64,000 nucleotides of DNA from a virus. Below the pieces are notes generated by a model. It was given only the letters and a program-made list of their open reading frames with translations, was not told where the DNA came from and did no database searches. The stretch spans positions 1-64,000 of IMG/VR virus record IMGVR_UViG_3300045977_000235; one strand, given 5' to 3'. The position numbers and the translations under genes are program-made. This document shows positions 3,001 through 63,677 of the stretch, piece after piece (position 1 is the stretch's first letter; every line of letters starts with the position of its first letter).

Positions 3001-5106
3001 TGAACCTACTGCATCACCAGATAATAAAATCTTTTGTGCGACCCCAGCAGCAAAAAGAAGTGGTGCAGATGCAGTTGGGGCAATGCCTAAACCTAATCGT
3101 GTAAACTGTACATCATTTGTTGTTCCTAAACCAATATTTGTTCGTGTTGTTGTTGGATCACTAACGTTTATTGCACCAACAACATCAAGAGCAAAACCAG
3201 GTGTGACTGTCCCAATACCTACTCTATCACCAAACACATGAGACGTACCATCTTCAGTACGTAAGTGTAATGATGCTTTTCCTGCTGTAGCTGCTCTATC
3301 AGCACTCCACATTTGAATAGCATCAGCAGGTGACGTAGTGGGAGCAGTACCAGAACCAATGACAACACCTTGTACTAAATTTGTGCCAACAGATGCAACA
3401 TTAATAATAAAATTTGCATCTTTGTCTATCGACACTGTTTTACCAAACACTCCTGCATTTGCTACAGAAAATGATAAAATACCTGAAGTGTCTGCTGAAC
3501 CTCTTGCACCTGATATTCTTGCTACTTCAAAACTTGTGCCCGTAAAATTTTCATTATTAAAAGATAATAGTGTACCAAAATTAGGACTTAATACATCTGT
3601 TGTTGCTTTTACACGTAAATTCAATACGTTCCACAAATTACTTGATGATGTAGCATTCTTTGTAATCCGTTGTGACCCTACAACATCTAATTCAGACAAT
3701 GGAGTTAAATTATTTAATCCGACATAATCACTGAACACATGCGTAGCACCACTTTCAGATCGTATAAAAAGCCCTGTTTTACCTCCTACTCCACCACGAT
3801 ATGCAGCCCATAATTGTACCATATTTAATGGTGACGTACTTGGAGCAACACCTAATCCAAGACCTAATACAGCTTGAGCACCAGTACCAAATGTTGTTGT
3901 TTTAAGTCCTAGATTATTTGATGTTGAATCATAATGTAATTGTGCATCTGCACTTAACGTATATTGATCTGACCAAATCGTAATTGAATTTGTACTTCCA
4001 GATCCATGAATACCTGCAAGATTAAATTGTACATAAATTTCAGCATTATTTGAAATATTTGCTGCACCTGTACTCACAAAAGTCACAGGAATTGTTCTAT
4101 ATGTTCCAACATCTGTAAGAGTTCCTGATACGGTATATCGAATAGATTTTGATGAATCAACTCTATCTTGTATATAAATCGTATCACCAACATCTAAATC
4201 ATCTAAAAGGATACTTGAATCTGTACCACCACTACTTACTTCTGTAATATACATTTCTGTTGCAGAACTATAATCTGTATTATTTACCGCTATACTTTGT
4301 GCGGCTGGAGGAGTTACAGTTGATGTAGACCATTTCCATATACCTGACGTTGTTCCACCTGCACTACCAGCAGTCATAGAAACCCATGCATCATTAATTC
4401 GGCCTTCAATATCTGCTCCTGTAAATCGTATCGTTCCATTAGCTAACAAAGCTGTTGTGCCAAGTTTAATTCCACCTACAACTTCTAATGCTTCAGCAGG
4501 AGCTACTGTCCCTATACCTACACGATCTCCTAGTACGTGCTGTGTACCATCTTCTGCTCTCACGTGTAATGATGTTTTTCCTGGTGTACCTGCTCTATCT
4601 GCTGCCCACATTTGTATAGCATTTACAGGATTCGTACTTGGACCAATACCTAATGCAATAACAATACCATGATTTAATAATGTTCCTGCTGCTGCACCAC
4701 CAACAAGAAGATTTCGTGCAATAGTTAAATCAACAATACCGTCAACATTATTCGTGTCTGTAATAATGATCCCACTATCTTGTAATGATGTTCCTGTTGA
4801 ACCATTCCATCTCACAATAGCATTGTCTGTAGACGCACCAGGAAAACCACCACCAGCACCACCTATGGTATCAAAACGTTCTGCGACTGTACTATAAACA
4901 CCTGAAGGTGATGTACCTAATTCAGTTTGTATAGCAATAATCGCATCTATCACATCATTCATAAATTCTGCATCTACTCTTGACTGACTATCGGCAATGG
5001 GATTAGGACCATTCGTATAATCACTTTTACCCCCGCCACTGACATACAACAATGTGTCTAGGGTAACTGGATAAGAGGTAGATGTGCCACTACCAAGAGC
5101 ACCCAT
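1..5106 (-). CDS. Long tail fibre / receptor-binding protein, >1700 aa, 3' end beyond the window (absent from the ORF track)
   Basis: ATG at 5106 with AAGGAG RBS at 5113-5118. It reads MGALGSGTSTSYPVTLDT..., and the same frame reads ...GQKINLYDTILAKYGFGIGSSQM at position 1. It carries VGIGTxxP and EDGTxHVFGD fibre-type repeats and lies downstream of the J-like gene. Continuity was spot-checked, not fully translated. Confidence 0.85.
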   Translation of the reverse strand, partial: MGALGSGTSTSYPVTLDTLLYVSGGGKSDYTNGPNPIADSQSRVDAEFMNDVIDAIIAIQTELGTSPSGVYSTVAERFDTIGGAGGGFPGASTDNAIVRWNGSTGTSLQDSGIIITDTNNVDGIVDLTIARNLLVGGAAAGTLLNHGIVIALGIGPSTNPVNAIQMWAADRAGTPGKTSLHVRAEDGTQHVLGDRVGIGTVAPAEALEVVGGIKLGTTALLANGTIRFTGADIEGRINDAWVSMTAGSAGGTTSGIWKWSTSTVTPPAAQSIAVNNTDYSSATEMYITEVSSGGTDSSILLDDLDVGDTIYIQDRVDSSKSIRYTVSGTLTDVGTYRTIPVTFVSTGAANISNNAEIYVQFNLAGIHGSGSTNSITIWSDQYTLSADAQLHYDSTSNNLGLKTTTFGTGAQAVLGLGLGVAPSTSPLNMVQLWAAYRGGVGGKTGLFIRSESGATHVFSDYVGLNNLTPLSELDVVGSQRITKNATSSSNLWNVLNLRVKATTDVLSPNFGTLLSFNNENFTGTSFEVARISGARGSADTSGILSFSVANAGVFGKTVSIDKDANFIINVASVGTNLVQGVVIGSGTAPTTSPADAIQMWSADRAATAGKASLHLRTEDGTSHVFGDRVGIGTVTPGFALDVVGAINVSDPTTTRTNIGLGTTNDVQFTRLGLGIAPTASAPLLFAAGVAQKILLSGDAVGSRYGLAVAAAALQVFGAGAASVELGSMSTVDGITFTSRLSVYGTSGNVGVGTGTFGTGATRTFALFNGVAPTTSPADTVQLWSADRNATAGKGSLHLRTEDGTSHVFGDMVGIGTTNPTAALDVIGALKVSDVATTQANLGIGSASSSQLDRLGLGTPATADARLTFLAEVGQKLLLYGNGITTRNGLGVASGVMQVFSQSTGTVDIGSMSTADGTTFTNRLSINGTSGNVGLGTKTYGTSAARVFALFAGTAPTTSPADTVQMWTADTNAVAGKAGLHIRTEDGTSHVFGDKVGIGTTAPTVAFEVAGAIKALNVQFDRIGLGQSSSTNARLVFSAELGQKILLYGDGVAARYGLGLASGVLQVFSATTGNIQLGTMDTTDGVTFTPIMTILPTAVGIGVVDPLRAMHVVGSNSARSGFRTEMYNTSTVATDLQMIKARGTVVAPEGVIDNDGIGRWISYGYARNSTDTAMANISVGLIDMSVDSIDAQGRIGGRLVFYTNPGVSGTITEKMRLTQEGWLGIGMTDPKARLHLTNENLTTGQLILGSQRIALVVDNVIGGADFWSNDTNLTSPGQMTAYVRALADETHTATTLGTRMTFATTAVGATTPTLRMTLKSDGSLNMVSGNKITLNESGNSKYGMVFGGGNTLQIFGSDSASTTGVSIGGMSSADGVTFSPVLRVKALSKNIILGTANDAGTSASFTFGINIGTAPTTSPVDMVQLWAADRDATAGTASLHVRTESGVIHVLGDYIGFGMADPYETLNVLGIANYFERHDAVATGYFHVTRKSRGTRAVPLRVAELDYVSYYGSQAYVRNAANTADQWNYMSRIDTRIESVDAEGRAGGVLIFYTSPPVSGSLTERMRITQDGFVGIGVSVPTTVLHVGNNNVTDAGLILTSQRVAIATDNLLNGIDFHSNDTNLSPTVMTAYIRAYASETHTATTLGTRIAFATTSIGAAAPTWRMTLLDTGVLSFGTWTGQKINLYDTILAKYGFGIGSSQM

Positions 5107-5197
5107 GTAATTCTCCTTTACAAAAAATCATACATATTAAATTATTTAATATGTAACAAACCATTCAAACATTATATTCCAATTAAATTATTTAATC

Positions 5198-8100
5198 TTA
5201 TGTTGCTGCTGCAAATCCATAAATCATCACCCGTACCCATGTTACACTTGATGTATTACTATCTTCTATATTATAAAGTTTAATAGGGATAGTTGTACCT
5301 GCTGATATTGCTCCCATCATTCGCGTGCGTGTATTATAAACAACTGCATTATTACCACTTGCACCATAACGTGATCCTTCAGCATCCGGTTCATCAAGTA
5401 AATAAATCCAATGTTCTTGCCCATCATAAAAATACGTTACTGCTAATTCATTTGGTTCATTTGCTACAGCAAATTCTGCTGTAATCGTAGCTATTGCCAT
5501 AGCATCTGCAATAAAAATTTCTCCTACATGTACACCTGATGCAGAATAAGGAACATTATTCGCATATAAAAAGTTCCCACTTAACCGTAAGTTATCCCCA
5601 AAACCATCTAATGTTGTAGCTGATACTCCTGCTGTTGGGCTTTCAGGGTGAAACGTACTTACATTCCCTGCATAATCAAATGACCGTATCCAATAATACC
5701 ATGTTTCTAAATTGCCTAAACCTGTATGTGAATAAGTAACTGCACCATTAAATACAGAACTAATTTTTGTTGCTGCTGCCCGATTATTTGTACGTGATGC
5801 CCAAATTTCTACACCATCAAAATCTAAAACAGTAGGATTCGACCATAATAATTCAATCGCTCGTATACCACCTTCGGCTGTTAAACCTACTGAAGCAGCA
5901 GGTGGAGTTACATCAATATTTGTAACTGTGATGGTCACTTGTAATAAACCATCATAATTAGGTGTCCCACGAACAGAAATAGGTACGACTCTATATTGAA
6001 TAATCGTTCCTACAGGTGGAGCAAGTTCTTTATATTGAAAAGCATACTGTCCTGTTATAGATCCTACTAAGTTAAAACCAGAAAGATTATCAAAATTTTC
6101 AGATCCTGATTCAGCAGCAAGAAATTCTCCTACATTTAATGATCCTGCTACAGCACTTCCTTCAACATATCGTCTATAAATCAAACCACCACCATATACA
6201 CCATATTTTACACCTGGATTTATTCTCCGTGCATCTTCCACTTGCATGACATCCCATTCAAGAACAATAAAATTATTTAAGTTTCCTGTAGCATCGCGGA
6301 AAATTTCTTCAAATCCCATTAATTGTATTAAAGGTGGAGGTGGACCATCAGGTTTAATTAAATGTGATGGACTCGGTAATAACGTTGCAGTAAATGGATC
6401 AAACACACTTGCATTATGTTCAACACCAGTAACTGTAATAATAAAATCACTAGCACGTTCAACCTTTGTTATACGGAATAATTTAAAAGCTGTATTAAAT
6501 GGTTCTGCTCTCCCAAATGCCCATTGAGTATAACCTTCAGATGGAGTAAATGTTAAATCAGGTTCTGATGCTTCTAATTCAAGTACACGTGTATTAACTG
6601 TTCCTGTTGAAGCTGGATTATGGAGCAATCGAACATTTTGTACATCATCCTTGTTTTGTAAAAACACATGATAAATACCACCAGGAGCAAAAGGAACTTC
6701 AGAATCAAGGACAATAGTACGTCTATTTGTTACTATATCATCTCCATAATCTTCTACCACTCTACCAGACCATCCGTATCCAGGTAATGGGTGTGAAAAT
6801 TGTATCACATCCATAATTTCAAAAATCATCCCTGCAATATTCATTGTAAATTCTACTACTTGTTTTTGATAGCGCCGAGAAACTAAATTAAATGCCGTTT
6901 CTCTTTCTACTTCACTAGGACGTGCAATAGAACGAAATTCTAATGAACTTTTATTCACTAAATAAGGCCAATCTTCTACTTTAGGATATACTAAAACATC
7001 TTGTTCATAGTCATCCTCAGCATTTGCATATCGACATTCTAGGACGTTCACATCATCAGCATCTCGTACATATGCTAAATTTACAGAGTCTCTAATTGTT
7101 GATGCCCATGTAATTAATTGAACAGGAGCACTATCTTGTGCAGTTTTTACTTTCCATAATCCGCCAGTTTTTACTAAAACTGACCGTGATGGCATTAATA
7201 TCTCATCAACAACTTGTGGTGCATCTGTATCAGAATCAATAACAAAACTTATAATTGATCGTCTTTCTTGAAAATCAACTTCACCATCATCGTCACTATC
7301 AACATCAACTAATTCATTACAATAACTTGCATAGGCAATAAATGATGCAAGGTCTATTTCTTCATCTGCTATACCTAGTCCGTATCGTGTATTCGTCAAA
7401 AAATCCATTAAACACCACGATGGATTATCAGAATATATAGGAGTATTCAAAAAAGATCCTACTCGAACTTTTTTTCCTTTAACAATAACTGTAGCATTGG
7501 GCAAAGAACCTTGTAAATTTTCTGTTGCAACAATACGTAAACCGTATATAGCTGTATTAGGAAATGTTTCTGTTGTATCAACTATTTCAGATATTTTTGA
7601 TAAATATGGTTTAAATTCAGATTGATCATCATCATATTTTGCACTTACAAATTGTATAGTAATATCATAAACATCAAGAGGAAGATTTTCTACCTTAATA
7701 GGACGATGAACAATTTTCTTTTGATCTGTATCTGTTGATACTTGTATAGGACCAACCCATCCACCAGGACTACTTTGACCTTTATAACTATATGACCATG
7801 TAGATACATTATTTGCACGTGCGCCAGTTTTTGTATCTATATGATACAATCCAGCAGCAAAATCTACATGAATAATAAAACCATTGACTTCTGTTAATGT
7901 TGTATAGTTTACAGGTTCTTCTGAAAATTCGATATTCCCTTGATCAAACGTATTTTTTGATTGTGTGAAAAAAGGTATTTTTGTTTGTGTTGGTGTACCT
8001 AAACGTGAATCTAAAGCAATTTGTTGATAGTTGCTAATAGGTTGATCGTTAATCTCTATTGTATCTAATTCAAATTCTTCTATCTCACCTTCACCTACAG

Positions 8101-8605
8101 CAATAAGCATATGGAGAGTAGGATCTTGTATAGTAAACTCATTATTGTTTGTGCGTTCTTCTACAAATGCTGTTAATAATTGTCCACCTACTCTATGTCG
8201 TCCATAGATAATAGGGACTACGTTTCCTGGTCCCTGTGTTGTTTTAATACCTGCCCAACTAAAACTTGATCCTTCTTTATCTGGCGGCTCAAATTTAGGC
8301 GGCTTTACAGGGAACAATAAATTCATTACAACACTTAATACAACTGAAATGATAATAGAAATAGCAATCATAATAAGAAAAGGAATACCTATTTTACCTG
8401 ATACAACTATTTCACAATCTTTAGGAGGTAAATAAAGATCTTTTTCTTCTATATACGTTCCATTAATAGCTATATTAAGTTTTTCTAAATCATAATCATT
8501 AAAAATCTCATGAAGATATAGATCTTCTTCTACAACATATTCTCTTGTATGATACTCTCCTGTCATTGATTTGAAAGGACTCATTATAAGTTTTATTTTA
8601 TTCAT
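5198..8605 (-). CDS. Central tail tip / host-specificity protein (lambda J-like) with an I-like N-terminus and a C-terminal FN3-like domain
   Basis: 1135 aa. Motifs VPIIYGRHRVGG, VGEGEI, VKGKKV..YSDNPSWCLMDFLTNTRYGLG. Position after tape measure and L/K-like genes. Confidence 0.88.
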   Translation of the reverse strand: MNKIKLIMSPFKSMTGEYHTREYVVEEDLYLHEIFNDYDLEKLNIAINGTYIEEKDLYLPPKDCEIVVSGKIGIPFLIMIAISIIISVVLSVVMNLLFPVKPPKFEPPDKEGSSFSWAGIKTTQGPGNVVPIIYGRHRVGGQLLTAFVEERTNNNEFTIQDPTLHMLIAVGEGEIEEFELDTIEINDQPISNYQQIALDSRLGTPTQTKIPFFTQSKNTFDQGNIEFSEEPVNYTTLTEVNGFIIHVDFAAGLYHIDTKTGARANNVSTWSYSYKGQSSPGGWVGPIQVSTDTDQKKIVHRPIKVENLPLDVYDITIQFVSAKYDDDQSEFKPYLSKISEIVDTTETFPNTAIYGLRIVATENLQGSLPNATVIVKGKKVRVGSFLNTPIYSDNPSWCLMDFLTNTRYGLGIADEEIDLASFIAYASYCNELVDVDSDDDGEVDFQERRSIISFVIDSDTDAPQVVDEILMPSRSVLVKTGGLWKVKTAQDSAPVQLITWASTIRDSVNLAYVRDADDVNVLECRYANAEDDYEQDVLVYPKVEDWPYLVNKSSLEFRSIARPSEVERETAFNLVSRRYQKQVVEFTMNIAGMIFEIMDVIQFSHPLPGYGWSGRVVEDYGDDIVTNRRTIVLDSEVPFAPGGIYHVFLQNKDDVQNVRLLHNPASTGTVNTRVLELEASEPDLTFTPSEGYTQWAFGRAEPFNTAFKLFRITKVERASDFIITVTGVEHNASVFDPFTATLLPSPSHLIKPDGPPPPLIQLMGFEEIFRDATGNLNNFIVLEWDVMQVEDARRINPGVKYGVYGGGLIYRRYVEGSAVAGSLNVGEFLAAESGSENFDNLSGFNLVGSITGQYAFQYKELAPPVGTIIQYRVVPISVRGTPNYDGLLQVTITVTNIDVTPPAASVGLTAEGGIRAIELLWSNPTVLDFDGVEIWASRTNNRAAATKISSVFNGAVTYSHTGLGNLETWYYWIRSFDYAGNVSTFHPESPTAGVSATTLDGFGDNLRLSGNFLYANNVPYSASGVHVGEIFIADAMAIATITAEFAVANEPNELAVTYFYDGQEHWIYLLDEPDAEGSRYGASGNNAVVYNTRTRMMGAISAGTTIPIKLYNIEDSNTSSVTWVRVMIYGFAAAT

Positions 8606-9122
8606 TTAATGAATCCTCATATATTGTTCTGTATCGCCAAAAATTTTCTTTTTCTATTGTTGCTTTACGTAACATTATTGAACGTGCGTTTTCTATAAGT
8701 TCACGTGCTTGATCATCATATTCTTCTCCGAATATTCTTGGCCGAACAATTTGATAAATATGTCGTTTATATTGTTGTATTTTCCCTATACATACTCCAG
8801 TAGGTTGAATACAATGCACAAATTCTGTTGTGTTGAGTACAATACCACAATGATCAACTGGATACAATACCGTATGAAGAAGTAACATATCCCATTGTTG
8901 TAATTTTTCCCAAGGAAATTCCCAACCGTACTCTTTACAATAATATTCAAAGAATTTTTGTGTATTATCAGGAGCATAATTTGACATATCTAAATCTAAA
9001 CCTTCATTATATAAAGCCCGTGTTATTTCATAACAATCCATACCTATATCACTACCACGTTCTTTATATGGTGTACCTATATATTTTGTGATTAAATTAT
9101 TTAAGTCTGGTACTGTTTTCAT
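8598..9122 (-). CDS. NlpC/P60 tail tip assembly protein (lambda K-like)
   Basis: YIGTPY..G...GMDCY catalytic Cys and HCGIVL..EFVH; directly upstream of the J-like gene. Confidence 0.85.
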   Translation of the reverse strand: MKTVPDLNNLITKYIGTPYKERGSDIGMDCYEITRALYNEGLDLDMSNYAPDNTQKFFEYYCKEYGWEFPWEKLQQWDMLLLHTVLYPVDHCGIVLNTTEFVHCIQPTGVCIGKIQQYKRHIYQIVRPRIFGEEYDDQARELIENARSIMLRKATIEKENFWRYRTIYEDSLNE

Positions 9123-9857: not shown

Positions 9858-10577
9858 TTACACAAATATTCCTTGTAATGATTCTTCTATATGATTAGAA
9901 GGATTACAATTTACACAAATAAACTTATCATCATTAAATAATTTAATCATTTCCTTTTCTGCAAATTCATTATTACATAATGAACATGTATATAATATTT
10001 TTTCTTTCTTATATTCAATACCAATACTTCCCCGATATTTTTTTAAATATATTGCCCAACATTCTTTACAAATATAATAATGATAATAATATCCTTTTCT
10101 ATTATCTTTCTGTCTGTAAAAATCATCTATATCTTTTATTTCAAAACACATATTACATTTTTTTTCACCAGTTTCAAATACAAACTTTTTTCTATATATT
10201 CGTGTCCTATAATGATAATCCATCATTATTTTTGTACGGCATATTTTACATTGACTTTCTTTTTTAAATGGTTCTATACGAGACGTAAAAAATTCATCTA
10301 TATATTTTTCTGTATTACATATTGTACATATTTTCATACCACTATTAATAGCTTTTCTTCGTTCTTGTATACCGTGTTTTCTTCGCCATTGTAAAAAATA
10401 ATCTGGATTATCTTTATTAAATTTTTTATAATATTTTAATAATCTTCCATCATCCTTTCGTCGATATTCATACATACATTGTTTACAATAATCATATATA
10501 CCTAAAGGACGTGATTTAGCTTTTGTATATTCTGTAAAAAATTTATATCGTAAACACATACCACAACGTTTTTTCAT
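9858..10577 (-). CDS. Multi-CxxC zinc-ribbon repeat protein (HNH-associated type, no clear nuclease motif)
   Basis: Four K-x-C-x2-C...F...C-x2-C units; very Lys/Tyr-rich. Confidence 0.6.
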   Translation of the reverse strand: MKKRCGMCLRYKFFTEYTKAKSRPLGIYDYCKQCMYEYRRKDDGRLLKYYKKFNKDNPDYFLQWRRKHGIQERRKAINSGMKICTICNTEKYIDEFFTSRIEPFKKESQCKICRTKIMMDYHYRTRIYRKKFVFETGEKKCNMCFEIKDIDDFYRQKDNRKGYYYHYYICKECWAIYLKKYRGSIGIEYKKEKILYTCSLCNNEFAEKEMIKLFNDDKFICVNCNPSNHIEESLQGIFV

Positions 10578-10589: not shown

Positions 10590-11249
10590 TTATTGTAAAC
10601 TATATAATGATGTTTGATCAAATTGTATATATGGAATACCACCAGTAAAAGAACTCATCTGAACACCTAATCCTTCTGCAATACCAGCAGTATGAGCTAA
10701 TCCAGTAGGATCTATATGTGTCAATCGAACAGCTAAATCAGAAAAATCTGTTGCTGCTCCTGAAGAAATAGCAAAATATACTCCACCTAAATTTGCTATA
10801 TCAACAATCCATTCAGCCATAAAAGCAAAAGTCGTTCCTAAAGTTACCCATGATGATGCTTCAAGAGTTGCAATTGATAAACCAGATCCTAAAGTTTGTC
10901 CTGTTAATCGCCATATTGTAAAATCACTTAGAATATACTGGTATCCTAAAAAATAACCATTCGGACTTCCTATACTCATATCATTAGCACTTTGCAAACA
11001 CACTATACCATACCTATTTGCATTAGCACCACCAGTAGCACTTGTATTAGTTCGTATAAGTGTACGCATTCTCCCTTGTTCAATACCTTTTGTCCGTCCA
11101 CTTGCAACAGTAACTACACCATTACCAGGATCTCCAGCAGAATTATTAAGTAATGCTTTTAATGAACTTGTTCCTATAATTGGATTAACAAGATCTAATG
11201 AAAAATTTATGCGAGCATTCGCAGTAAAAAATTGCCAATCTGAAAACAC
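10590..11249 (-). CDS. Tail-associated beta-rich protein, paralogue family (copy 6)
   Basis: MFSDW..PIIGTSSL..TKGIEQGRMRTL..EWIVDIANLGG..ATDFSDL..FDQTSLY. GTG start with GGAGGT RBS. Confidence 0.75.
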   Translation of the reverse strand: MFSDWQFFTANARINFSLDLVNPIIGTSSLKALLNNSAGDPGNGVVTVASGRTKGIEQGRMRTLIRTNTSATGGANANRYGIVCLQSANDMSIGSPNGYFLGYQYILSDFTIWRLTGQTLGSGLSIATLEASSWVTLGTTFAFMAEWIVDIANLGGVYFAISSGAATDFSDLAVRLTHIDPTGLAHTAGIAEGLGVQMSSFTGGIPYIQFDQTSLYSLQ

Positions 11250-11265
11250 ATTATACCTCCATTTT

Positions 11266-11790
11266 CTATCTTACACGCCTTGGTATATTTGCAAAACCAC
11301 CAGATCTAACATAACGTCTACTAGGAACAATCTTTTTTAAACTTAATCCTTCCCATTGACATTCAAAACTGACATTAAATAAATCAGTACGTGCATTGAG
11401 TATCACAAATTTATCATTACTATTTATTGGTGTTAATGCCGGATTTACTGTATTGACTACCCATATTGTCACTATCCATAATGGATCTAATACAGAAGTC
11501 CAAAATTCTTCTAATAATGCAATAACTGCTCTATCAATATTTGCTGTACTTAGTGTTAATCTTTTTAATTCTGAAGCACTATTATGTTCAACACTTCCTA
11601 ACTTAAATGGATATGGAGTAAATTCAATGCTATTAAATATTATCGGTTCATTATGATCTGTTACAGATCGTGATCCAAATATATCAGGATTTGTTGCAGT
11701 TCTAAATTGTAATAATAAACAATGAACCCAAGGTGTTGTTACGTGTAATTCATTTTTAAGTCTAATCAACTCCAAAGGCCATGTAATCAA
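11266..11790 (-). CDS. Minor tail / hub protein (lambda L N-terminal-like)
   Basis: DHNEPIIFNSIEFTPYPF, LTLSTANIDR, KIVPSRRY. Synteny between the Dit-like and K-like genes. Confidence 0.7.
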   Translation of the reverse strand: MITWPLELIRLKNELHVTTPWVHCLLLQFRTATNPDIFGSRSVTDHNEPIIFNSIEFTPYPFKLGSVEHNSASELKRLTLSTANIDRAVIALLEEFWTSVLDPLWIVTIWVVNTVNPALTPINSNDKFVILNARTDLFNVSFECQWEGLSLKKIVPSRRYVRSGGFANIPRRVR

Positions 11791-11817
11791 TTCTCTACCT
11801 CCTACCGATTAAATTAT

Positions 11818-12402
11818 TTAATAATATCGTTCAACTATTCTACATTTTAAATTATAATATCCTAAATTATCTATATCACGCCCGACAAGTTTTTCAGATC
11901 CTTCATATCCAACTTCATCTATAATGAGTCCCATATACGGAAAAAATATTCGTACTCCACCACCACTTATGTATTCTCCATTTCCTAACACACCAAGGAG
12001 TTCAAATGTTGTTCCATTGATATATTTTGCTCTATGTGTCCCATTTGCAGCAGTATTTCCTAACACACCAGTAATTGTAACTTTATCTAAATCTAATATA
12101 TTATGGTGAAATTCTGTTTCAACGGTTACTGGTTCTGTATTTGATACCATAACTATGTTCTGTGCAAATGGATACGTCCATTGAAATGATAAAACTGGAC
12201 CTCTTTGTGAACGTATAAAACGTTCTATAACATTCTTTTTATCGGCTGATAATCCCTTCCATTCTAATTCATATGCCCGTTTCGGTCGAATATGCCGTGG
12301 TCGAGTTTGATATAAATGTTTCTGATGGGTAGATTCTAACCACGGATCATGTATAGAAATAGGACTTACTTCTGATAATGGTATATTAGGAAATACAGGC
12401 AT
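11818..12402 (-). CDS. Distal tail protein (Dit / lambda M-like) with an inserted beta domain, copy 2
   Basis: R.YELEWKGLS..K..IERFI....G....FQWTYP; insertion ITGVLGNTAANGT. Paralogue of 15067-15669. Confidence 0.7.
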   Translation of the reverse strand: MPVFPNIPLSEVSPISIHDPWLESTHQKHLYQTRPRHIRPKRAYELEWKGLSADKKNVIERFIRSQRGPVLSFQWTYPFAQNIVMVSNTEPVTVETEFHHNILDLDKVTITGVLGNTAANGTHRAKYINGTTFELLGVLGNGEYISGGGVRIFFPYMGLIIDEVGYEGSEKLVGRDIDNLGYYNLKCRIVERYY

Positions 12403-12418
12403 AGCAATATATAACTCC

Positions 12419-13060: not shown

Positions 13061-13071
13061 TGTATTTCTCC

Positions 13072-13719: not shown

Positions 13720-13729
13720 TTGTATCTCC

Positions 13730-14377: not shown

Positions 14378-14388
14378 TGTATCTCTCC

Positions 14389-15039: not shown

Positions 15040-15066
15040 AATATCACCTCCATTAAATTATTTAAT

Positions 15067-15669: not shown

Positions 15670-15681
15670 TTTTATCTCTCC

Positions 15682-52233: not shown

Positions 52234-52324
52234 TGCTTCTATATCCTTGTGAGTAGTGAGAGCATAACACTATGCTATGCTCTCTTGATTAAATTATTTA
52301 ATCCCTAGCAGATGGACAGTAGTT

Positions 52325-52988: not shown

Positions 52989-53018
52989 ATTGTACCATTC
53001 GGCCACTAATTAAAGCAA
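52989..53018 (-). promoter_or_regulatory. Putative promoter TTGCTT-18-TGnTACAAT
   Basis: Shares TTGCWTTAATT...TACAAT with the sites at 36704 and 55085. Confidence 0.55.
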
Positions 53019-53052
53019 GTAAAGTTTTGATGCTAGCAAATCACTAGCAAGT

Positions 53053-54114: not shown

Positions 54115-54149
54115 TATGCTCTTTCCTATCGGATTAAATTATTTAATCT

Positions 54150-55075
54150 GAGAGCATACCAGAGTATTGCCTTGTACTCTTTAAACAAGCTTTGTCTTTA
54201 CTCACAGTAAAGTCTGGCGATTCGTAGCACGTGCTACAGATTTGCTTGTAAAGTATGCTCTCTTTCCAGAGTACAGTAGAGTGCTACCACTACTCTTTAA
54301 CAAGCTTTGCGATACTCGCAAGTATCGCTTGGTGATCCATAGCATGTAACATGCTACAGTTTTGCTTGTACCTTGTACTCTGTAATGCTCTGCACTATAG
54401 ACTTGCAATCTATAATTGTTGCATTACAAGCAATACCTAAGTCTTATTGTGTGCTTAGTTAATACCTCTCTATACTAGCATGGTATATATTGCTTGTGCT
54501 CTGCAATGTACAGAGTCCAGATAGACAAGAGGTATAGTCTTACAAGGTAAGTTTTGTTTACAAGAGAGCATACCTTAGTATGCTGCATAACAAGTAAACA
54601 ATGTTTGCTCTGCTATTGTCTCTTATCATCTGCTTTTATTTTTTCATCTTGTCTCAAGTACACAATATATATACGCTCTTATCATGGCGTATGCTCTTAT
54701 CATTCGCAAGAGTGTACTTCTATAGTCTTACTTGTTACTCGTATCAATGCACCGTTTACTTTATCAATATGCTATGTTTGCTTATGCAATCTTATAGACT
54801 TACTTATTGATAGGCTTTCCATATGCGTATGCTTTTTAGCTAGCGTCTTATATGATACTTTGCAATGCTATAGGCTGTTATGGTTTGGCGTACCAGAGGA
54901 TAGTATTGCATTGTGTTTTACAATGTTATCTATCCTGCTAGGGTTATCTTAGGCTAACCCTTAGTTTTACCTGCTAGCATACCTCATGCTGTTACTGGCT
55001 CTACTGCTTGAGTACCCTACCAAGTCTCAAGTATGCCTCTACATCTACCGTATGCCTGCTATTTGGTTTTAAAAG
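54150..55075 (-). ncRNA. Candidate large structured RNA or long leader
   Basis: No credible RBS-led ORF, many hairpins, and directly downstream of the promoter at 55085-55114. Confidence 0.4.
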
Positions 55076-55084
55076 AGCAAAAAA

Positions 55085-55114
55085 ATTGTAACAAGTTTAT
55101 CGGAATTAAAGCAA
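55085..55114 (-). promoter_or_regulatory. Putative promoter TTGCTT-18-TACAAT heading the island transcription unit
   Basis: Same architecture as 52989-53018; palindrome copy 40 bp upstream at 55154. Confidence 0.55.
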
Positions 55115-55149
55115 GCAAACTTTAACTGTATTTTTTTTCAATATGTTAT

Positions 55150-56322
55150 GCGGATTAAATTATTTAATCCGCTATATTCTGGCGTGTTTTCTAGGCTTTC
55201 CTCCTATGTACCCAAAGGTACGCGCTTGCATATGTTGCAAAGTGTATGCCAAACTATGGCATTATTGATACTCGTTTCTCATTGTGTGCATTTTTTCTGT
55301 TTTGCCCTATATCGTAGTCTGGCATACTTTTTGCTTGTGCGTTTTGCCCTATCGAATGCCGTTTTTTGGTGTCTGTAAAGCTCTATACTGCGTTTTGATG
55401 GTAAGACGTGCTACCATACTGGCATATGCCGAAAAATTGAAAATAGAGAAAGCATACGCATCTTGACTAGCAAGTATGCCATATTGTAATTTTTTCCTCT
55501 CAAGTCTGCATAGTCTGGCATACTTTATGCTGCGTAAAAAAATTGCATTATTGATATTTTTTATCATTCCTCTGCTAACAATAGATCATAGTCACAGCCT
55601 ATTAAAAACAGACTTTTTCATAGAAAAAATTCATAAAAAAATTTTACGAATTTTACCTTGTACTGTCGTTTACATCCTATGCATAACGTTTACACCATAC
55701 GATAAATGTATGCTTTCATCTGTTTTTATCCTCTCTTATTCTACTGTTATCCTCTAATGTCTGCTTTTATCCTCTATCGTATGCTTTTATCGTATAACGT
55801 ATACGATAGTATGCAATCGTATACTTTTGACGGATTAAATAATTTAATCGTTTACATTTTGCGTGTTACGTATACGAAAAGATCCATCTGTAAACTTTAT
55901 TATCATAAAGTTTACAGTCTGGCAGAGTGCAGACTGTTAGCTAAGGTCTTAACAATCTTATAGCTAATCACCTATCGACTTCGGCCATGATTAAATAATT
56001 TAATCTTTCTCATTGTGAGATACTTTTCAAAAATGAAAATGAGAATCAAAAAGATTAAATAATTTAATCGCCTATTAAAGATCTTTAAGACCTCATAGTG
56101 AGTACATAAAAAATAATAAGACCGCAACAATAGACTTATAAAGACCGTAGAAATATTGGTATACGCCTATATGGTCCTTAGACGTATAGCTATATATACA
56201 TATTGCTGCGGTCTTTATTAAAGAATTTAATCGTGTCAAAATTTTGACACGTCAAAAATTTTACACCTGTTAGAATTTTGACAATAAAGACCTTGTTTTT
56301 ACGTCATTTTTTTGACATGGGG
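55150..56322. repeat. Non-coding right flank of the island with four TGTCA-N6-TGACA-like boxes and four palindrome copies
   Basis: Boxes at 56234, 56250, 56268 and 56302; palindromes at 55154, 55834, 55990 and 56054. Confidence 0.75.
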
Positions 56323-56484
56323 GTTGCGCGTGCGTGCGCGTGTGACGTGTGTGCGAGAGGGATATGTGAGAAAAGAGAAGGTCTTTGGTGGGAGTGTGTG
56401 TATTTTTGGTGAGTGTATAGGAAATTTTATAGAGATATATGTATATAGTATATACATATATACATATATCTGTGTGCGAAATAT

Positions 56485-56904: not shown

Positions 56905-56952
56905 GTGATTTTCTCCTGGTTTTCTTTTGAAATGTGTATGGATTTGTGTAGG

Positions 56953-57000
56953 ATTTTCTACAGAAATCAAAACGAAATTGAATTGATTTCTGTAGAAAAT
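56953..57000. repeat. Perfect 18-bp inverted repeat with a 12-bp spacer
   Basis: ATTTTCTACAGAAATCAA-N12-TTGATTTCTGTAGAAAAT. Confidence 0.85.
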
Positions 57001-57345
57001 TGAAATGAAAATGAAATGAAAAATGATCCTATTTCGCTATGCCCCCGCCCATTTTTAGGGTTAAAGTGACTCCCTCTATATATTTCTATTAACAAACAAA
57101 ATTAAATTATTTAATCCTCCCCTATCCGTACTATTAAAAAACATATAGTAAAGAACAATGTCCATAACAAACAGAATACTACGACTCCTAACTCTGGTAT
57201 ATACTTCCTCATATTTTCCCTATGAGAATAGGTTCGTGAACACTGTTAGTATATACAGTATAACATAGACTCCACATAATATCAATCCAAAGATAAAGAA
57301 TAATAAAACGTATATACCATTATTATCATCTTTCATTGTGCGCCT

Positions 57346-58261: not shown

Positions 58262-58843
58262 TTATCCTTTTGTACCAAGAGATACCATCTCTCCATCCAT
58301 CTGTATCTCTTGTGTTTGTAATAGACGTTCTACTGTTAAATCAAAATGTAAATCAAAAATAAATTGCAATCGTTCTTTGATGTCGTAGATAGAGAGGCTT
58401 TTATTCTCTATACAAAATTTAATATGTTGTTTTAAAAATTCATGCATATATTATTCCTTAGTAACAAGGGATGCTACATCATTTGTTATTTGTATTTCTT
58501 CATTCCGTACAAGAAACTCCATTGTAATAGCAAAGTGTGATTCAAAGATATATAGTAACTGCATATGTAATTCTTGAACAGGAACAGATGGATTCTCTTT
58601 CAAAGTATCTAAGATATACCGTATCAACGTGTTATACATTTATACATCCTTTGCAACAAGGTAGACTGTATCATTGACTATAGATACATCTTGTGTCTCT
58701 ACAAGAGACTCCAGTGCTACATCAAAATGAAATTCAAAAGCATTCTGTAGTTCCTGATGGAGTTCAACAAAAGATAAAGAATAATCTTCTTTATCTTCAA
58801 GGGCAGATATGATATAGGCTTGGAGTAATTCATGTAACTTCAT
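58262..58843 (-). other. Three tandem paralogous ~62-67 aa winged-helix-like proteins (58262-58447, 58451-58639, 58640-58843)
   Basis: Shared L..[YH]I...[LI]..., [ED][LI]...L...F[DE].HF....E.L....[IV].....V.SL pattern. Confidence 0.65.
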
Positions 58844-59057
58844 TATACTTTACTTTCTAGTTTTATGATTCTCTTTTGTAGTTCCCCGTTTTCTATGGAG
58901 AGATCGTAGAGTTCTCTTTGTATTCTATGTTCAATCTTCTCTATACGATCTAATAGTTTCTCACAGAAACTTTGGAGTTGTCTTATAGATCTGTACTCCC
59001 ATGAATATTGATGCCCGTAATTCCCATCTAGTTTCATATGTTCTCCTATTAAATAAT

Positions 59058-59735
59058 TTAATATCGTACAAGGATATTAGGTTTACCTACCTTGTATAAC
59101 CATTCTTCTCCTTGTGCATTGTGTGCATCCCTATATTGTGGGAATACATATTTACCTACATTCTCTGAATAAGATTCAAGATTGAATCCTTCTGTGTTAC
59201 GAATTACATATCCTTCTAAAGAGTTCTCATGTGTTGAATATGCAGACTTCTTCATTTTCATATCTACCGCAGCTTGTATAGCCTTTACATCATACATGCC
59301 CGTGTAAATAACAGGTACGTGTATAAGATCTAGCTTCTTGATTATCTTCATTGTGTCATAATAAGATAAGCAATAATGCCCTATCCAAATTGAATGAACT
59401 AAAAAATAATCAGGTAACAAATCGTACTCTATAACATGTTGCATGTACATGTTCTCTCCTACGATTCGATACCTTGGATCTAGCTTGTAACAAAGAAGTG
59501 ATTGTAATTGTGCTATGTAATGTGTACTACTGTGCTTCATAGGAGTTAAGCTACGTGTGTGCCAATAATTTTGTGCCACAGTTACACATCCTCCGTCAAC
59601 CTTTTCTGTAACTACTACTTCCTTTTGATTAAATACACTATCGGACTTTAATTGTCTATCACCTTTTGATATGTTAGACCAAGGGAGATGATAGACTCTT
59701 GGATACTTTATTTTCTCTGTCGTTTCTTCTGTCAT
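59058..59735 (-). CDS. ATP-dependent RNA ligase-family protein
   Basis: KYPRVYHLPWS, motif I TEKVDG, GEN, EGYVIRN, KYV. Start at ATG 59735 overlaps the MTase stop. Confidence 0.82.
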   Translation of the reverse strand: MTEETTEKIKYPRVYHLPWSNISKGDRQLKSDSVFNQKEVVVTEKVDGGCVTVAQNYWHTRSLTPMKHSSTHYIAQLQSLLCYKLDPRYRIVGENMYMQHVIEYDLLPDYFLVHSIWIGHYCLSYYDTMKIIKKLDLIHVPVIYTGMYDVKAIQAAVDMKMKKSAYSTHENSLEGYVIRNTEGFNLESYSENVGKYVFPQYRDAHNAQGEEWLYKVGKPNILVRY

Positions 59736-60502
59736 GTGCGTTCCTTTATTAAATAATTTAATCTTTTTATACAAATATTATAATACTGTTTTTCTTTTTC
59801 TATTCCTATAAATTGCCGATTAAGATTTTGTGCAGCAACTAATGTTGAACCACTACCTGCACAGTTATCAAGAACAATGTCACCCTCATTTGTATAGGTC
59901 TTTATAAGATACTCACAGAGAGCTATAGGTTTTTGTGTAGGTACATAACCTCCTTCACTTTCAGCAGTCCTAAAATATTGTACACTTCTTGGGAAACGTA
60001 AACCTGATTCGTTTTTTAATTCTACTGGTTTACGTTCTCCAGCACCTTTTGATAAGGTTTCGTTGTTCTTACCATTATCTATCCCATAATTATATGGATT
60101 ACCTTTAGTCTTTTGTGGAAAATATCTCATCCATTGTTTTGTATTTTGGGCTGCTGGATATTTAGAGAACACACTGATTATCTCATGTGTTTTCAATGGT
60201 TGAAATCTTGCATGAACATAATTACTTCCTTTTGATTTTTCCCATATCCAATCATACTTAAACAAACGAAGATTAGAAAGTCGTAAATAACTACTAAAAG
60301 GTTCACTACCAAAAAGAAGAATAGCACAATCATCTTTAATGATCCTCTCGTAGTGTTCCCATAACTTATCAAATGGTATAAGAACATCCCATTTGCAAGC
60401 GGTTGTTCCATAAGGTAAATCACAGAGTATCATATCTATTGATTGATCTGGTATATCTCCCATTAATTCTAAACAATCACCTAACCATATTTCTTTCTTC
60501 AT
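59732..60502 (-). CDS. DNA amino-methyltransferase (N4-C/N6-A, beta class)
   Basis: GDCLELM, ILCDLPYG, PTQKP..L.EYLI, VLDNCAGSGSTL. Confidence 0.93.
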   Translation of the reverse strand: MKKEIWLGDCLELMGDIPDQSIDMILCDLPYGTTACKWDVLIPFDKLWEHYERIIKDDCAILLFGSEPFSSYLRLSNLRLFKYDWIWEKSKGSNYVHARFQPLKTHEIISVFSKYPAAQNTKQWMRYFPQKTKGNPYNYGIDNGKNNETLSKGAGERKPVELKNESGLRFPRSVQYFRTAESEGGYVPTQKPIALCEYLIKTYTNEGDIVLDNCAGSGSTLVAAQNLNRQFIGIEKEKQYYNICIKRLNYLIKERT

Positions 60503-60554
60503 ATTTTCCTTTTATTAAATTATTTAATGAGGGGTATTTCTACCCCTCTAGTGT

Positions 60555-60989: not shown

Positions 60990-61463
60990 TTATTCTCCAG
61001 TAAGACAATTAATATTATTTATTTTATACCTAGAAACATTATAATGGAATGCTTTGTTCTTTTCTATTCCTCCTGTAGTGTGTACTAATAATCGACACCA
61101 TGATTCCTTCGTACTATGTACTATCAATGGGCTTTCTTCTTTATACACTGGCTCTGTGTCTGGACACATAAGCATTGCTGCTAATGTGTTATCTGGATCT
61201 AATATGTTCACACGTAAACATTGTCCTGCACCAACAAGTATCTTTGTTCCATAATAAAATGTATTTGTTTTCTGTGAATGTCTGATGTTTGCAAAAAAAT
61301 ATCTCTTTGCACAATCTGTTGTTCTACATGTTGCTACAGGTACTACATATGCGGATTCTCCATCAGAGGTAGGTATCTTTTCTACAAGGCATTCACCTTG
61401 TACTACACACGTCCATATAAGAGTCACAACAAAAACAGTCATCATCACCAGGAATTTTATCAT
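60990..61463 (-). CDS. Exported Cys-rich protein
   Basis: MIKFLVMMTVFVVTLIWTCVVQG signal-like start; AAGGT RBS. Confidence 0.6.
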   Translation of the reverse strand: MIKFLVMMTVFVVTLIWTCVVQGECLVEKIPTSDGESAYVVPVATCRTTDCAKRYFFANIRHSQKTNTFYYGTKILVGAGQCLRVNILDPDNTLAAMLMCPDTEPVYKEESPLIVHSTKESWCRLLVHTTGGIEKNKAFHYNVSRYKINNINCLTGE

Positions 61464-61509
61464 GTCACCTTTCTCCATTAAATTATTTAATTTTTTAAAA
61501 CACATACTA

Positions 61510-61999
61510 TCACTTTACCTTTTTCTTCCAACGAGCTAGTTTCTGTTTAGATCCTTCATGCCCTGCATCTTTATTTAACAGTCGTAACATCTTTAATTGT
61601 GCTTCTCGTAATGTAAAATACGTCCATTCTTTTTGTTCTTGTGCATTAATAATAATTACTACATATATTTGTGCGTTCTCTATCCAATCATGTTCCCTTT
61701 GACTATAGAGTGCTACATTCTTTTCTCTTTTTAATTGTTTAAATTCATAGCCTTCACTAGAAAGTTCAATGGGAAGGGTTTGCATTTTTACTCCATTAAA
61801 TTATTTAATCATTCGATTTGAGATGCACTAACTTATTATCTTTTATTCCTATGATTTCTTCCTTTGATAATGTATCAAATTCCTTTTTAATAATTTGGCC
61901 GACATATTCTAATATCAATGTATTGAATTTCTCTAAAGATATTCCCTTCTGTGCATATGACAACAAGATAGCACGCACATATTCTTTAAGCATACACAT
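61510..61999 (-). other. Two small hypothetical CDS (61805-61999 weakly resembles the winged-helix-like triplet)
   Basis: ORFs with RBS, separated by a palindrome copy at 61795. Confidence 0.5.
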
Positions 62000-62508: not shown

Positions 62509-63222
62509 TTATATGTTTTCTATATGATAATATACTTCATGGCTTGGTTTATGAGTATGGTTAGAATAACTTTTGCTTATAGTAGTTAAATTATTAAACG
62601 GTAGCCATGTAGCACCAGACTTTTCACACACTATAATTTGTCCCTTTCTTCTACTAATCCATAATGCAAGGTGTTCATAATCTATTTTACTATATCTATA
62701 TTCTGTGCTTATGTTATGTTGATACGGTGGATCTATCATATATGTAGCATACTCTGATGGTATAGGCATACTTTCATATGACCAATTACTTATCTTCCAA
62801 TGGCGTATGTACTGTAACTGTGATGCTATTCTGTGTCGTGTTCGTTCATCCCAAAAGTAACCATTCATATGTTCTCTTGCCCATCGTGATAGTGTCTTGC
62901 GTGGTCTACCAGTACCTTTAGTGAGCCAGAATCGTATCAATAGTTGTGCTTCATGGGAGAGATAGGATACTTCATCTATATGTACCTTCACATCAGGTAG
63001 TGAAAGTATCTCTTGTTCTGATACATGGATCAAATAGTCCCATAGTGTAGCTACATTTTCATCTCTATCATTAAGGATTATTTGTTTGTGTGGATACCGT
63101 AAACTGTATCCTGCGCTGCCACTAAACGGCTCTACAATTATGTCATATTTGGGAGTCGGGTAGTACCTTGCTAATCTGTACTTACTGCCAAAAAAAGAGA
63201 AGAATGCTCGTAGTGTATGCAT
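62509..63222 (-). CDS. Dam-like (alpha class) DNA adenine methyltransferase
   Basis: FSFFGSK, VEPFSGSAGYS, ILND, IDPPY. Start coupled to the upstream stop (TAATG). Confidence 0.85.
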   Translation of the reverse strand: MHTLRAFFSFFGSKYRLARYYPTPKYDIIVEPFSGSAGYSLRYPHKQIILNDRDENVATLWDYLIHVSEQEILSLPDVKVHIDEVSYLSHEAQLLIRFWLTKGTGRPRKTLSRWAREHMNGYFWDERTRHRIASQLQYIRHWKISNWSYESMPIPSEYATYMIDPPYQHNISTEYRYSKIDYEHLALWISRRKGQIIVCEKSGATWLPFNNLTTISKSYSNHTHKPSHEVYYHIENI

Positions 63223-63677
63223 TAGTCTGTCCATTCTTGTATTTTTTGTTGTATTTCTTTGCGCCCGAAAGGTGATTGACAACGTTGTAAATATTCTTGA
63301 TACGTATTAAAACCTAATGCTTCTGCTAATTCTTGCATCACAACGTATGCTTCATTAACATCTCTTGGCATATAATAGAAGTTCTTTTCTATATCACCCT
63401 CATTTCTCAACCTGAGAATATGCATAGTAGGTCACAATACACCTTTTGTTGTTGCCCATATAGAAGGATCTAATGTATAGCGATGATGTTTAATATAATG
63501 TTTTTCTTCATAAGACAACATAACTAATCTCCTAGTGATTAAATTATTTAATCCAGCTTGTCTTTATGATTTTCTTTATACGATGCTGCAAAATTTGCCC
63601 CGACAAATAGCCCTATCAAAAACCCGACAAACAACACAGCAAAAAACATAAACCATACACCTACCATGCTATCCATA

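Follow-up and report, generated by a model that had tools for sequence, protein, structure and literature searches.

A strictly conserved, genome-wide 15-bp palindrome in an uncultured soil phage and its candidate ParB-like reader

Introduction

The operator OB of plasmid RK2, to which KorB binds, is a 13-bp palindrome present at 12 sites on the 60-kb IncP plasmid. In the Bacillota, Noc is an orphan ParB paralogue that operates without ParA; this cellular protein recognises dozens of palindromic NBS sites over the chromosome, spreads from them and uses an N-terminal helix to tether DNA to the membrane. KorB is a CTP-dependent sliding clamp and as such can act over a distance, not only at promoters (PMC11790492, PMC13768133). 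Here we report on the first 64 kb (64,000 nucleotides, hereafter the window) of the IMG/VR viral contig IMGVR_UViG_3300045977_000235, which is 103,465 bp long. An all-A/T palindrome, ATTAAATWATTTAAT, recurs throughout this DNA, and a ParB/Noc/KorB-type protein encoded in the window is the best candidate for its reader.

Among phages, the nearest parallel in print is a 17-bp dyad repeat, 5'-TGTTCGGNNNCCGAACA, of the Cluster O mycobacteriophages, Corndog and its relatives (PMC4351075; PMC6439249). Corndog carries 34 perfect copies and 3 near-copies with invariant arms; about one third are intragenic, they show no orientation to transcription and they lie mostly away from promoters (PMC4351075). 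The authors predicted a dimeric DNA-binding protein for the repeat, whose function has stood unexplained since 2015 (PMC4351075), and we found no later paper in the literature that explains it. Two other dispersed phage repeats have been described. The stoperators found in Cluster A mycobacteriophages lack symmetry, point along the direction of transcription and are the binding sites of the monomeric immunity repressor of a temperate phage (PMC9283540, PMC6550527), and the start-associated sequences (SAS) of Cluster K are a 13-bp repeat located just upstream of many start codons (as described in PMC4351075). In a recent survey of ParB proteins, fusion to the helix-turn-helix (HTH) domain was seen more often in bacteria than in phages, and a phage lattice is not mentioned (PMC12704722). 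The ParBs that activate phage thymine dioxygenases have no DNA-binding domain and belong to a different subclass (PMC13229309).

A sequence-only reading of the window had likened the palindrome to KorB, Noc and stoperator sites. These are fair working likenesses, but the closest precedent, the Cluster O repeat (PMC4351075), had been missed. The lattice described here is no chance effect but a DNA word under strong selection throughout the genome, and Cluster O provides its published precedent. It constitutes a clean second case of a strict phage-wide palindrome lattice, from an unrelated low-G+C soil phage.

Results and discussion

Copy number and consensus

The 13-bp core of the palindrome, TTAAATWATTTAA, matches 42 times in the window, from 3705-3717 through 63539-63551, where dinucleotide shuffles give an expectation of 0.02 and a largest count of 1. 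The sequence-only reading had given the same number, with outer bounds (3704 and 63552) that are the ends of 15-mers and a chance expectation of roughly 0.1 copy. The whole contig contains 64 copies of the core, a mean of about one per 1.6 kb, whereas Markov models of orders 0-6, trained with the copies masked, predict 0.023-0.106. The enrichment over a high-order background, which the same reading had proposed to measure, is thus 64 against 0.075 at order 6. A 13-bp palindrome of this form made only of A and T can have 64 sequences; 64 occurrences fall to the present one and 7 to the remaining 63 combined.

The core is real, but the conserved unit is a palindrome of 15 bp and not of 13 as first described: in ATTAAATWATTTAAT the position before the core (-1) is A in 56 of 64 copies and the position after it (+1) is T in 59 of 64. 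A weak preference for G/C is also seen one position beyond the 15-mer. We located 52 perfect 15-mers and 16 with one mismatch, 11 of the mismatches being at an outermost position and 5 in the 13-bp core; degenerate cores are therefore rare (64 perfect versus 5 with one mismatch). REP/RAYT systems differ in this respect, since they combine imperfect palindromes of 20-40 nt with a Y1 transposase; the present 15-mer is perfect, and no transposase family was detected among the ~135 contig proteins scanned. A scan of IMG/VR for exact 15-mers gave, among the matches listed, scattered lone chance matches in A/T-rich contigs.

Neither arm varies, and the centre is always an A/T pair and never G/C; on the sense strand A and T are found there 34 and 30 times, respectively, with no strand bias. 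Since these represent one base pair viewed from either strand, the A/T-only centre amounts to a single constraint. Stoperators resemble the present system in comprising tens of 13-17-bp sites in short intergenic gaps across a phage, all read by one phage protein. They differ in that the palindrome here is perfect and unoriented, and in that no lysogeny genes were seen.

A signal at the level of RNA, located in the intercistronic leader and serving for endoribonuclease processing or for binding of a translational regulator, would be consistent with the many copies found between a stop codon and the next Shine-Dalgarno (SD) sequence, and the palindrome indeed reads alike on transcripts of either strand. 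However, the 17-mer folds into a marginal hairpin (-1.6 kcal/mol) which in its context is no better than shuffles, and no compensatory or G-U changes were observed among the copies. A centre that is equally A or U and never G/C is natural for a DNA base pair. In addition, where junction copies leave gaps, these are filled by intragenic ones, and some copies are located in long non-coding stretches far from any start. We consider an RNA signal very improbable; together with base modification, discussed below, it is the least favoured of the rival explanations.

Conservation and turnover

A close relative is available as two contigs from one sample (G002 and L122); its TerL is 90% identical, and its ribonucleotide reductase (RNR) and PolA are 88% identical, to those of the present phage. 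Thirty of the 37 alignable copies are perfect in this relative, and the flanks (19 nt on each side) differ at 29% of positions. Conservation in relatives, a check that the sequence-only reading had put forward, is thus observed. At 4 of the 30 perfect orthologous copies the centre is flipped, and one of these flips changes N to Y in a small open reading frame (ORF) while the DNA word is kept. The remaining 7 alignable copies have degenerate counterparts in the relative; two of these are off by just one base. The palindrome is under strong purifying selection as a symmetric double-stranded DNA word, and this selection overrides protein coding.

Turnover of copies occurs as indels of ~30 nt or with whole small genes, and a gene cassette private to the relative brings its own copy (L122:4520). 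Replacement of lost copies nearby was not found as a rule: just 3 of the lost or unaligned copies have, within ~1 kb, a copy that is private to the relative. The idea that indels between the relatives end exactly at copies was rejected, as the ends lie near copies and not at them. The gene order of the two relatives is collinear. At greater distance, 79 IMG/VR loci whose TerL is 21-47% identical contain neither this palindrome nor any other lattice; the palindrome lattice is therefore lineage-restricted.

Six loose ends are listed for X6, an independent soil DNA run; in five of them a contig crosses one copy into the flank of another. The chimeric pairs (numbered from the core) are 11809/32585, 15053/34275, 15053/43214, 25262/35501 and 28360/42096; partners are 10-28 kb apart and occur in both direct and inverted arrangement, and the joints are located at 11803, 15052, 15072, 25260 and 28373. 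This pattern might indicate a site of cutting or nicking by a site-specific nuclease (compare the fixed nicks of T5 DNA) or a recombination hotspot, and the phage does encode HNH, PD-(D/E)XK, RuvC and RecA proteins. Any two copies are, however, self-complementary over 15-17 bp and hence expected hotspots for chimeras formed during library preparation, which is a simpler explanation than real breakage or recombination; each chimera may moreover derive from one molecule. Most X6 contigs bridge the copies normally, which together with the collinear gene order and the position of the indel ends makes cleavage or recombination improbable. The Cluster O authors likewise saw no rearrangements at their repeats (PMC4351075). 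More generally, self-complementary repeats of this kind act as breakpoints of chimeric contigs in short-read metagenomes.

Placement and spacing

Non-coding DNA makes up 11% of the contig and contains 41 of the 64 copy centres, so that most copies do sit at gene junctions, as had been noted from the window. The centres of 21 of the 64 copies are positioned 17-27 nt ahead of a start codon, immediately 5' of the SD sequence, and in 14 or more cases the TAA stop of the upstream gene is part of the copy. In a typical junction the stop falls within the palindrome and is followed by the SD sequence and the start, with almost no spare bases; plain packing into a dense genome would give this layout as well. 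The SAS of Cluster K differ in being tightly tied to translation starts, a position that is taken here by only the 21 copies just mentioned; about a third of all copies are intragenic and others are found in long non-coding stretches.

Truly intragenic copies number 20-23 of 64. They encode LN[NY]L or [IL]KLF, which are the sole options allowed by the word and match what is observed. Eleven lie inside genes in the window, and both this number and the peptides LNNL, LNYL and [IL]KLF agree with the sequence-only reading. The genes with internal copies include those for the fibre, an HNH protein, the protease/scaffold, a nucleotidyltransferase, a methyltransferase, ribonucleotide reductase, RecA and primase. 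In RecA, the phage has I-E-L-N-N-L-M where the E. coli protein has V-D-I-D-N-L-L; the word has been fitted into a conserved RecA segment through conservative substitutions.

Strong sigma-A-type promoters adjoin only 2 of the 64 copies (32585 and 88547), each copy being 4-5 nt past the -10 box in an operator-like position, and the earlier view that the lattice is not tied to a few promoters therefore stands. The first of these promoters has the consensus TTGACA-N17-TATAAT (32552-32580, plus strand). The next copy (32584-32598) begins 4 nt past its -10 box, in a divergent intergenic region, and covers the predicted +1; this copy is absent from L122 as a 30-nt indel, and the relative keeps the promoter without the palindrome. 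The second promoter, the near-consensus TTGACA-N17-TATACT, and its copy are found at contig 88547-88600.

The T4 late promoter, TATAAATA, resembles the palindrome. The copies might accordingly be phage promoters, each a minimal A/T-rich -10 box of the T4-late type at which host RNA polymerase and a phage factor restart transcription at many genes. Consistent with this are the 21 copies just upstream of an SD sequence and start codon, the copies located directly past terminator-like hairpins (60515, 101186 and 20836) and the copy carried by the relative's private cassette (L122:4520). We also found no second genome-wide intergenic word that could serve as the real promoter; ATATGTATA, AACGTTTACA and TACAAGGTA are confined to two long non-coding stretches. 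On the other hand, the copies are perfect dyads without orientation preference, 20-23 are inside genes and many of these are mid-gene, and many junctions leave 0-10 nt between copy and SD sequence and hence almost no leader. The Pfam scans revealed neither a sigma factor gene nor one for RNA polymerase, and the two promoter-linked copies sit downstream of sigma-A promoters and do not replace them. A promoter function is distinctly unlikely.

The largest gap between copies in the window, 4481 bp (15053 to 19534), spans the tape-measure gene, in agreement with the figure of ~4.5 kb given previously. The coefficient of variation (CV) of the gaps is 0.63, compared with 0.98 for random placement in this contig. 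Given the junction copies, the intragenic copies cut both the gap variance (P<0.0002) and the maximum gap (P=0.003) relative to random intragenic placement, and the junctions that bear a copy are more evenly chosen than random junctions (P ~0.02-0.04). Such even spacing points to a function for which coverage of the chromosome matters.

In Corndog, the mean spacing of the repeat is ~1.56 kb (half of the genome measured). The Cluster O phages share several features with the present one: they are lytic-looking siphophages with more than 30 copies, few near-copies, about one third of the copies intragenic and no orientation, and they encode a ParB-domain protein. They differ in that their repeat is G+C-rich with a 7-3-7 layout, as opposed to all-A/T and 7-1-7, in that phage and host type are unrelated, and in that the copies crowd towards one end of the genome (CV 1.06), where ours are even. 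The likeness to Cluster O is one of kind, not of descent.

The candidate reader

The sequence-only reading had proposed that the copies are sites for a dimeric DNA-binding protein, which might coat, organise, protect or silence the phage chromosome. That reading is supported in part. Their symmetry, the lack of strand bias and the purifying selection fit the proposal of a dimeric binder, and the palindrome is probably a docking site for a dimeric phage protein of some kind; protein binding, the identity of the protein as ParB, its spreading and the purpose in the cell are what we infer. In the reading that we prefer, ATTAAATWATTTAAT would be a cis-acting double-stranded site read by a symmetric (dimeric), sequence-specific phage protein, and the best candidate is a partner-less ParB/Noc/KorB-type protein of 452 amino acids (phrog_1033) encoded at 50875-52233 on the minus strand. 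By analogy with the ParB family, dimers would load at the copies and then spread or slide onto adjacent DNA. The ~80 copies, about one per 1.6 kb, would mark or organise the whole chromosome rather than switch single promoters. We put the probability that the palindrome is the docking site of this ParB-like protein specifically at roughly 0.5.

The protein matches the Pfam families HTH_ParB (PF17762, 7e-13) and KorB (PF08535, 22.7 bits against a cutoff of 22.3). Structures of Spo0J and Noc align with it from Box II through the HTH, those of Noc (7NFU, 7NG0, 7OL9) being among the best structural-sequence matches. Box II reads GHRRLQAA versus GERRYRAA, with the Arg pair kept; the recognition helix (TAPWVTQK) differs. 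An exhaustive HMMER search returned 2996 matches, mostly of canonical ParB size, which cover residues ~100-290 at 30-38% identity. Alignment searches with the ParB found no relative in IMG/VR, two short and distant contigs in JGI metagenomes and none in cellular genomes.

The C-terminal 68 residues (385-452) gave a symmetric homodimer model with a score of 0.74 against 0.00 for the best control. Of 30 solved homodimers 20 scored at least as high, as did 1 of 23 single chains; the runs agreed in at least 92% of contacts and pLDDT was at least 82. The model supports pairing of the C-terminal domain as a homodimer. An AF2 model of the monomer was poor (mean pLDDT 48), with the N-domain at low confidence. 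The N-terminal ~95 residues (window 51950-52233) are disordered and K/T-rich, with QEDTAT and PKVK...KSTV repeats that are absent from canonical ParBs. A second disordered linker comprises residues 307-386, and the C-terminal domain is helical. The phage protein is unlike Noc in this N-terminus and in having a different helical C-terminal domain.

As in multi-site ParB systems, a 15-bp dyad palindrome (64 copies) and a ParB-type HTH protein are found on the same replicon. As opposed to ParABS partition systems, no ParA-type ATPase partner was found: PF01656 has no match in the contig, and the family was matched in all 14 control genomes. The genes neighbouring parB gave no Pfam family, and no other sequence-specific Pfam DNA-binding domain was detected in the ~135 further contig proteins scanned. 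The candidate is linked to the palindrome by elimination and by the habit of its family, as ParB, Noc and KorB read palindromes of 13-16 bp. KorB and OB offer a parallel in that a ParB-family protein with a KorB-type HTH is combined with an odd-length palindrome scattered over a mobile replicon. RK2, however, has 12 sites and the partners KorA, TrbA and IncC, whereas here there are at least 64 sites, no ParA and no known partner, in a lytic-type phage; conservation of the CTP motifs is also doubtful in the phage protein. Corndog encodes gp90, which has a ParB_N domain and no Pfam-detectable ParB HTH. Its match to our ParB-like protein is weak and restricted to the N-domain (E 0.05), and the gp90 parallel is a lead only.

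Several observations count against the ParB-like protein as the reader, and the link between protein and site is circumstantial. Pfam ParB_N (PF02195) was not detected at E<=0.01 and the glutamate of ENLQRE (Box III) appears to be lost, so that CTP-clamp behaviour is uncertain. The copy 55 nt upstream of the parB-like start (52288-52302, followed by a hairpin) is unremarkable given the high density of copies. The contigs of the relative do not span the parB region (missing block 42-61 kb), and the 24% of the genome that is lacking by the CheckV estimate, together with the many ORFans, could hide another reader. Regular spacing, which the sequence-only reading had suggested as a test, is more even than chance in the present genome and random-like in the close relative: 33 copies are spread over its 69-kb contig (one per 2.1 kb), the CV being 0.88 (P=0.32) and one gap measuring 8.6 kb. 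Evenness can thus be claimed for the present genome but is not established for the lineage as a whole.

Cultured phages add a further point to this side. Five GenBank groups have a homologue of the ParB N-domain plus HTH, and a genome-wide lattice was found in none of the five; an HTH-bearing ParB was thus rejected as a predictor of a genome-wide lattice, since alone it does not predict one. The Agrobacterium phages Milano and 7-7-1 contain 7 and 4 copies, respectively, of TACAAATnATTTGTA, a palindrome that shares both the 7-1-7 layout and the inner half-site with ours. These copies are confined to one 12-kb block of small genes (Milano 42,973-54,422; 7-7-1 32,661-39,121), ~30-35 nt ahead of annotated ribosome-binding sites, and look like an unannotated set of operators or promoters. 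Bacteroides phage Versailles has 6-8 copies of TTTTGCnnnnGCAAAA, and no palindrome set was found in Curvibacter phage PCA1 or Klebsiella phage Kpn BU9.

A different dimeric phage regulator, either an ORFan of HTH or ribbon-helix-helix type or a product of the missing part of the genome, could use the copies as operators or roadblocks and time or repress transcription genome-wide in the manner of symmetric stoperators. Double-stranded symmetry and conservation fit any dimeric binder, two copies occupy the classical operator position 4-5 nt past the -10 box of the best sigma-A promoters, and most of the proteins encoded at 42-60 kb match no Pfam family. Yet no such protein was identified among the ~135 scanned, nor was an integrase or immunity repressor found; most copies do not lie near promoters, and a palindrome cannot give the orientation dependence that is used in stoperator silencing (PMC9283540, PMC4351075). 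We regard another regulator as unlikely, though less so than the other rivals.

The palindrome might also be the target of a phage DNA methyltransferase or other base-modifying enzyme, as an epigenetic self-mark. The phage encodes two N6/N4 methyltransferases, one of the D12 class and several nucleotide-metabolism enzymes, and some phage ParB-fold proteins act with DNA-modifying enzymes (PMC13229309). Methyltransferase sites are, however, normally 4-8 bp long and not 15, and a modification target alone explains neither the enrichment nor the spacing. The modification-linked ParBs have no DNA-binding domain, unlike the ParB described here (PMC13229309). No match to a TET/JBP dioxygenase was found in the contig, a weak negative since this family matched no control genome either. 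The odds of a modification target are as low as those of an RNA signal.

Returning to the ParB-like protein as reader, the widest form of the proposal is that a lytic-type phage tiles its chromosome by means of an orphan ParB and ~80 evenly placed loading palindromes as a 'self' mark. This we hold tentatively, and on balance doubt. If true, the mark would condense, compartmentalise, protect or globally time the phage DNA. Such a use of a ParB clamp is not described in print for a phage, and it would possibly explain the Cluster O repeats too. CTP-clamp biology would then reach beyond the maintenance of plasmids and chromosomes to the marking of whole genomes in lytic phages. The candidate reader can be synthesised, so that an in vitro test with a 17-bp duplex would require no cultured phage.

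The phage and its assembly

The window encodes a large terminase of the lambda-gpA type, a portal, a major head protein, a tape measure and a J-like tail protein. Further genes encode PolA, DnaB, a DnaG-type primase, RecA, ribonucleotide reductase, dCMP deaminase and DNA methyltransferases. The phage is of low G+C content and of lytic type, and strong SD sequences are visible throughout. TerL is at most 26% identical to that of any cultured phage, none of which is close, and megablast of 24 kb against GenBank phages gave no match. The sequence is present in 21 soil metagenome runs, its source setting being soil and the phage uncultured, and is seen only as read-sized contigs, which give neither transcript ends nor strand or level, in three metatranscriptome runs. 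A TerL scan of genomes for the host gave very distant matches to Myxococcota only. The IMG/VR record is labelled linear and 76% complete. The relative's 69-kb contig G002 links position 1 of our contig directly to ~103,215, and the assembly is therefore a permuted, nearly whole genome. When window 1-767 and contig 102,500-103,465 were inspected, window 1-690 was found to resemble contig ~102,520-103,215.

Individual copies in the window

The copies are given below as 15-mers, which carry no strand (.). At the left end, the copy at 3704-3718 is within the fibre ORF 1-5106(-) and encodes LNNL; its core is exact, its outer pair is G/T, and it is perfect in G002. Two junction copies 46 bp apart follow, at 5136-5150 (30 nt ahead of the start of ORF 1-5106(-), kept in G002) and 5182-5196 (just past the stop of ORF 5198-8605(-), centre flipped in G002). 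The copy at 9091-9105 lies 18 nt into the long form of ORF 8598-9122(-), where it encodes LNNL, or at a junction by the shorter call; it is kept in G002, as is the copy at 9933-9947, within ORF 9858-10577(-) (IKLFN). A series of junction copies comes next: 11808-11822, which overlaps the end of ORF 11818-12402, is 18 nt ahead of the start of ORF 11266-11790, is conserved and is an X6 chimera breakpoint; 15052-15066, also conserved, 13 nt ahead of the start of ORF 14389-15039(-), where two X6 chimeric contigs break; 19533-19547, 18 nt ahead of the start of the tape-measure gene; 20277-20291, 32 nt ahead of the start of ORF 19859-20245(-); 20835-20849, after a hairpin and 17 nt ahead of the start of ORF 20375-20818(-); and 22203-22217, 12 nt ahead of the start of ORF 21859-22191(-). 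The last two are conserved. LNNL is encoded by the copies at 25261-25275, within ORF 25044-25532(-) (conserved, X6 chimera breakpoint), and at 27723-27737, within the protease/scaffold-like ORF 27155-28303(-). The junction copies at 25672-25686 (conserved) and 28359-28373 (X6 chimera breakpoint) are, respectively, directly past the stop of the major head gene and abutting that of the portal gene.

From 30 kb onwards, the junction copy at 30000-30014 is 20 nt ahead of the start of ORF 29762-29980(-) and is kept in L122. The copy at 32676-32690 is located 25 nt from the start of ORF 32652-32894(+), encodes LKLFK and is also kept. At 34274-34288 a junction copy overlaps the stop of ORF 34057-34278 and precedes the start of ORF 34305-34886 by 17 nt, with its centre flipped in L122. 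The centre of the copy at 35500-35514, within ORF 35474-35686(+) (LNNL), is flipped in L122 as well, with N becoming Y. The copy at 37842-37856, within ORF 37801-38142(+), encodes LNYL and its core is kept in L122. The junction copy at 39257-39271 overlaps the stop of ORF 39058-39261 and is absent from L122 as a 34-nt indel. The copy at 40040-40054 encodes LNNL within the nucleotidyltransferase ORF 39468-40190(+); L122 is without this gene and has a one-mismatch copy at the junction. At 41139-41153, 14 nt ahead of the start of ORF 41167-41454(+), a junction copy is kept in L122.

Two long non-coding stretches, 41970-43632 (1.66 kb) and 54953-56484 (1.5 kb), hold copies. The former contains those at 42095-42109 and 43213-43227, both partners in X6 chimeras. 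The latter contains the copy at 55154-55168 and a tight trio within 232 bp (cores at 55835, 55991 and 56055; 15-mers at 55834-55848, 55990-56004 and 56054-56068). Copies are also observed in the non-coding stretches 45662-46013 (45860-45874) and 56905-57345 (57101-57115).

The copy at 47684-47698 overlaps the stop of the helicase gene and is followed by a GAGAGCATAG hairpin, an SD sequence and a start. Such hairpins, with GAGAGCATAG/CTATGCTCTC arms, form a second repeat family (window 43000-55000) located between a palindrome copy and the next SD sequence, within the ORFan block that contains parB; examples are 47640-47683 and 52240-52287. The copy at 49964-49978 lies within ORF 49817-50188(-) and encodes IKLFN. 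Four junction copies on this side of the window precede a minus-strand start, by 19 nt at 54133-54147 (ORF 53905-54114(-)), by 11 nt at 59048-59062 (ORF 58843-59037(-)), by 14 nt at 61477-61491 (ORF 60990-61463(-); kept in G002) and by 10 nt at 61795-61809 (ORF 61510-61785(-)). The last junction copy, at 63538-63552, is followed by an SD sequence and ATG.

The first N6/N4 methyltransferase gene is flanked by a copy at each end. The copy at 59748-59762 is at the 3' end of the methyltransferase ORF 59732-60502(-), encodes LNYL and sits just ahead of the SD sequence and ATG of the next ORF; that at 60514-60528 comes right after a G+C-rich terminator-like hairpin and 12 nt ahead of the methyltransferase start. 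The two N6/N4 methyltransferases map to window 59771-60439(-) and contig 91279-91905(-). The D12-class methyltransferase, the PD-(D/E)XK nuclease, RuvC and an HNH protein are encoded elsewhere in the contig.

Beside polA, outside the window (contig 75258-80246), is a module that encodes a 603-residue protein with PPDK_N and PEP-utilizer mobile domains, two dual-specificity phosphatase-like proteins and a P-loop kinase; no link of this module to the palindrome was found. A single tRNA-Asn(GTT) gene (window 35690-35763) lies inside the plus-strand nucleotide-metabolism module. At window 10590-15039 an array of about six paralogous genes, each of ~215 codons, was found. A contig from run X6 joins 10731 to 12558 within this array, and a further joint is seen at 12641, which suggests that the array varies in copy number within the population.

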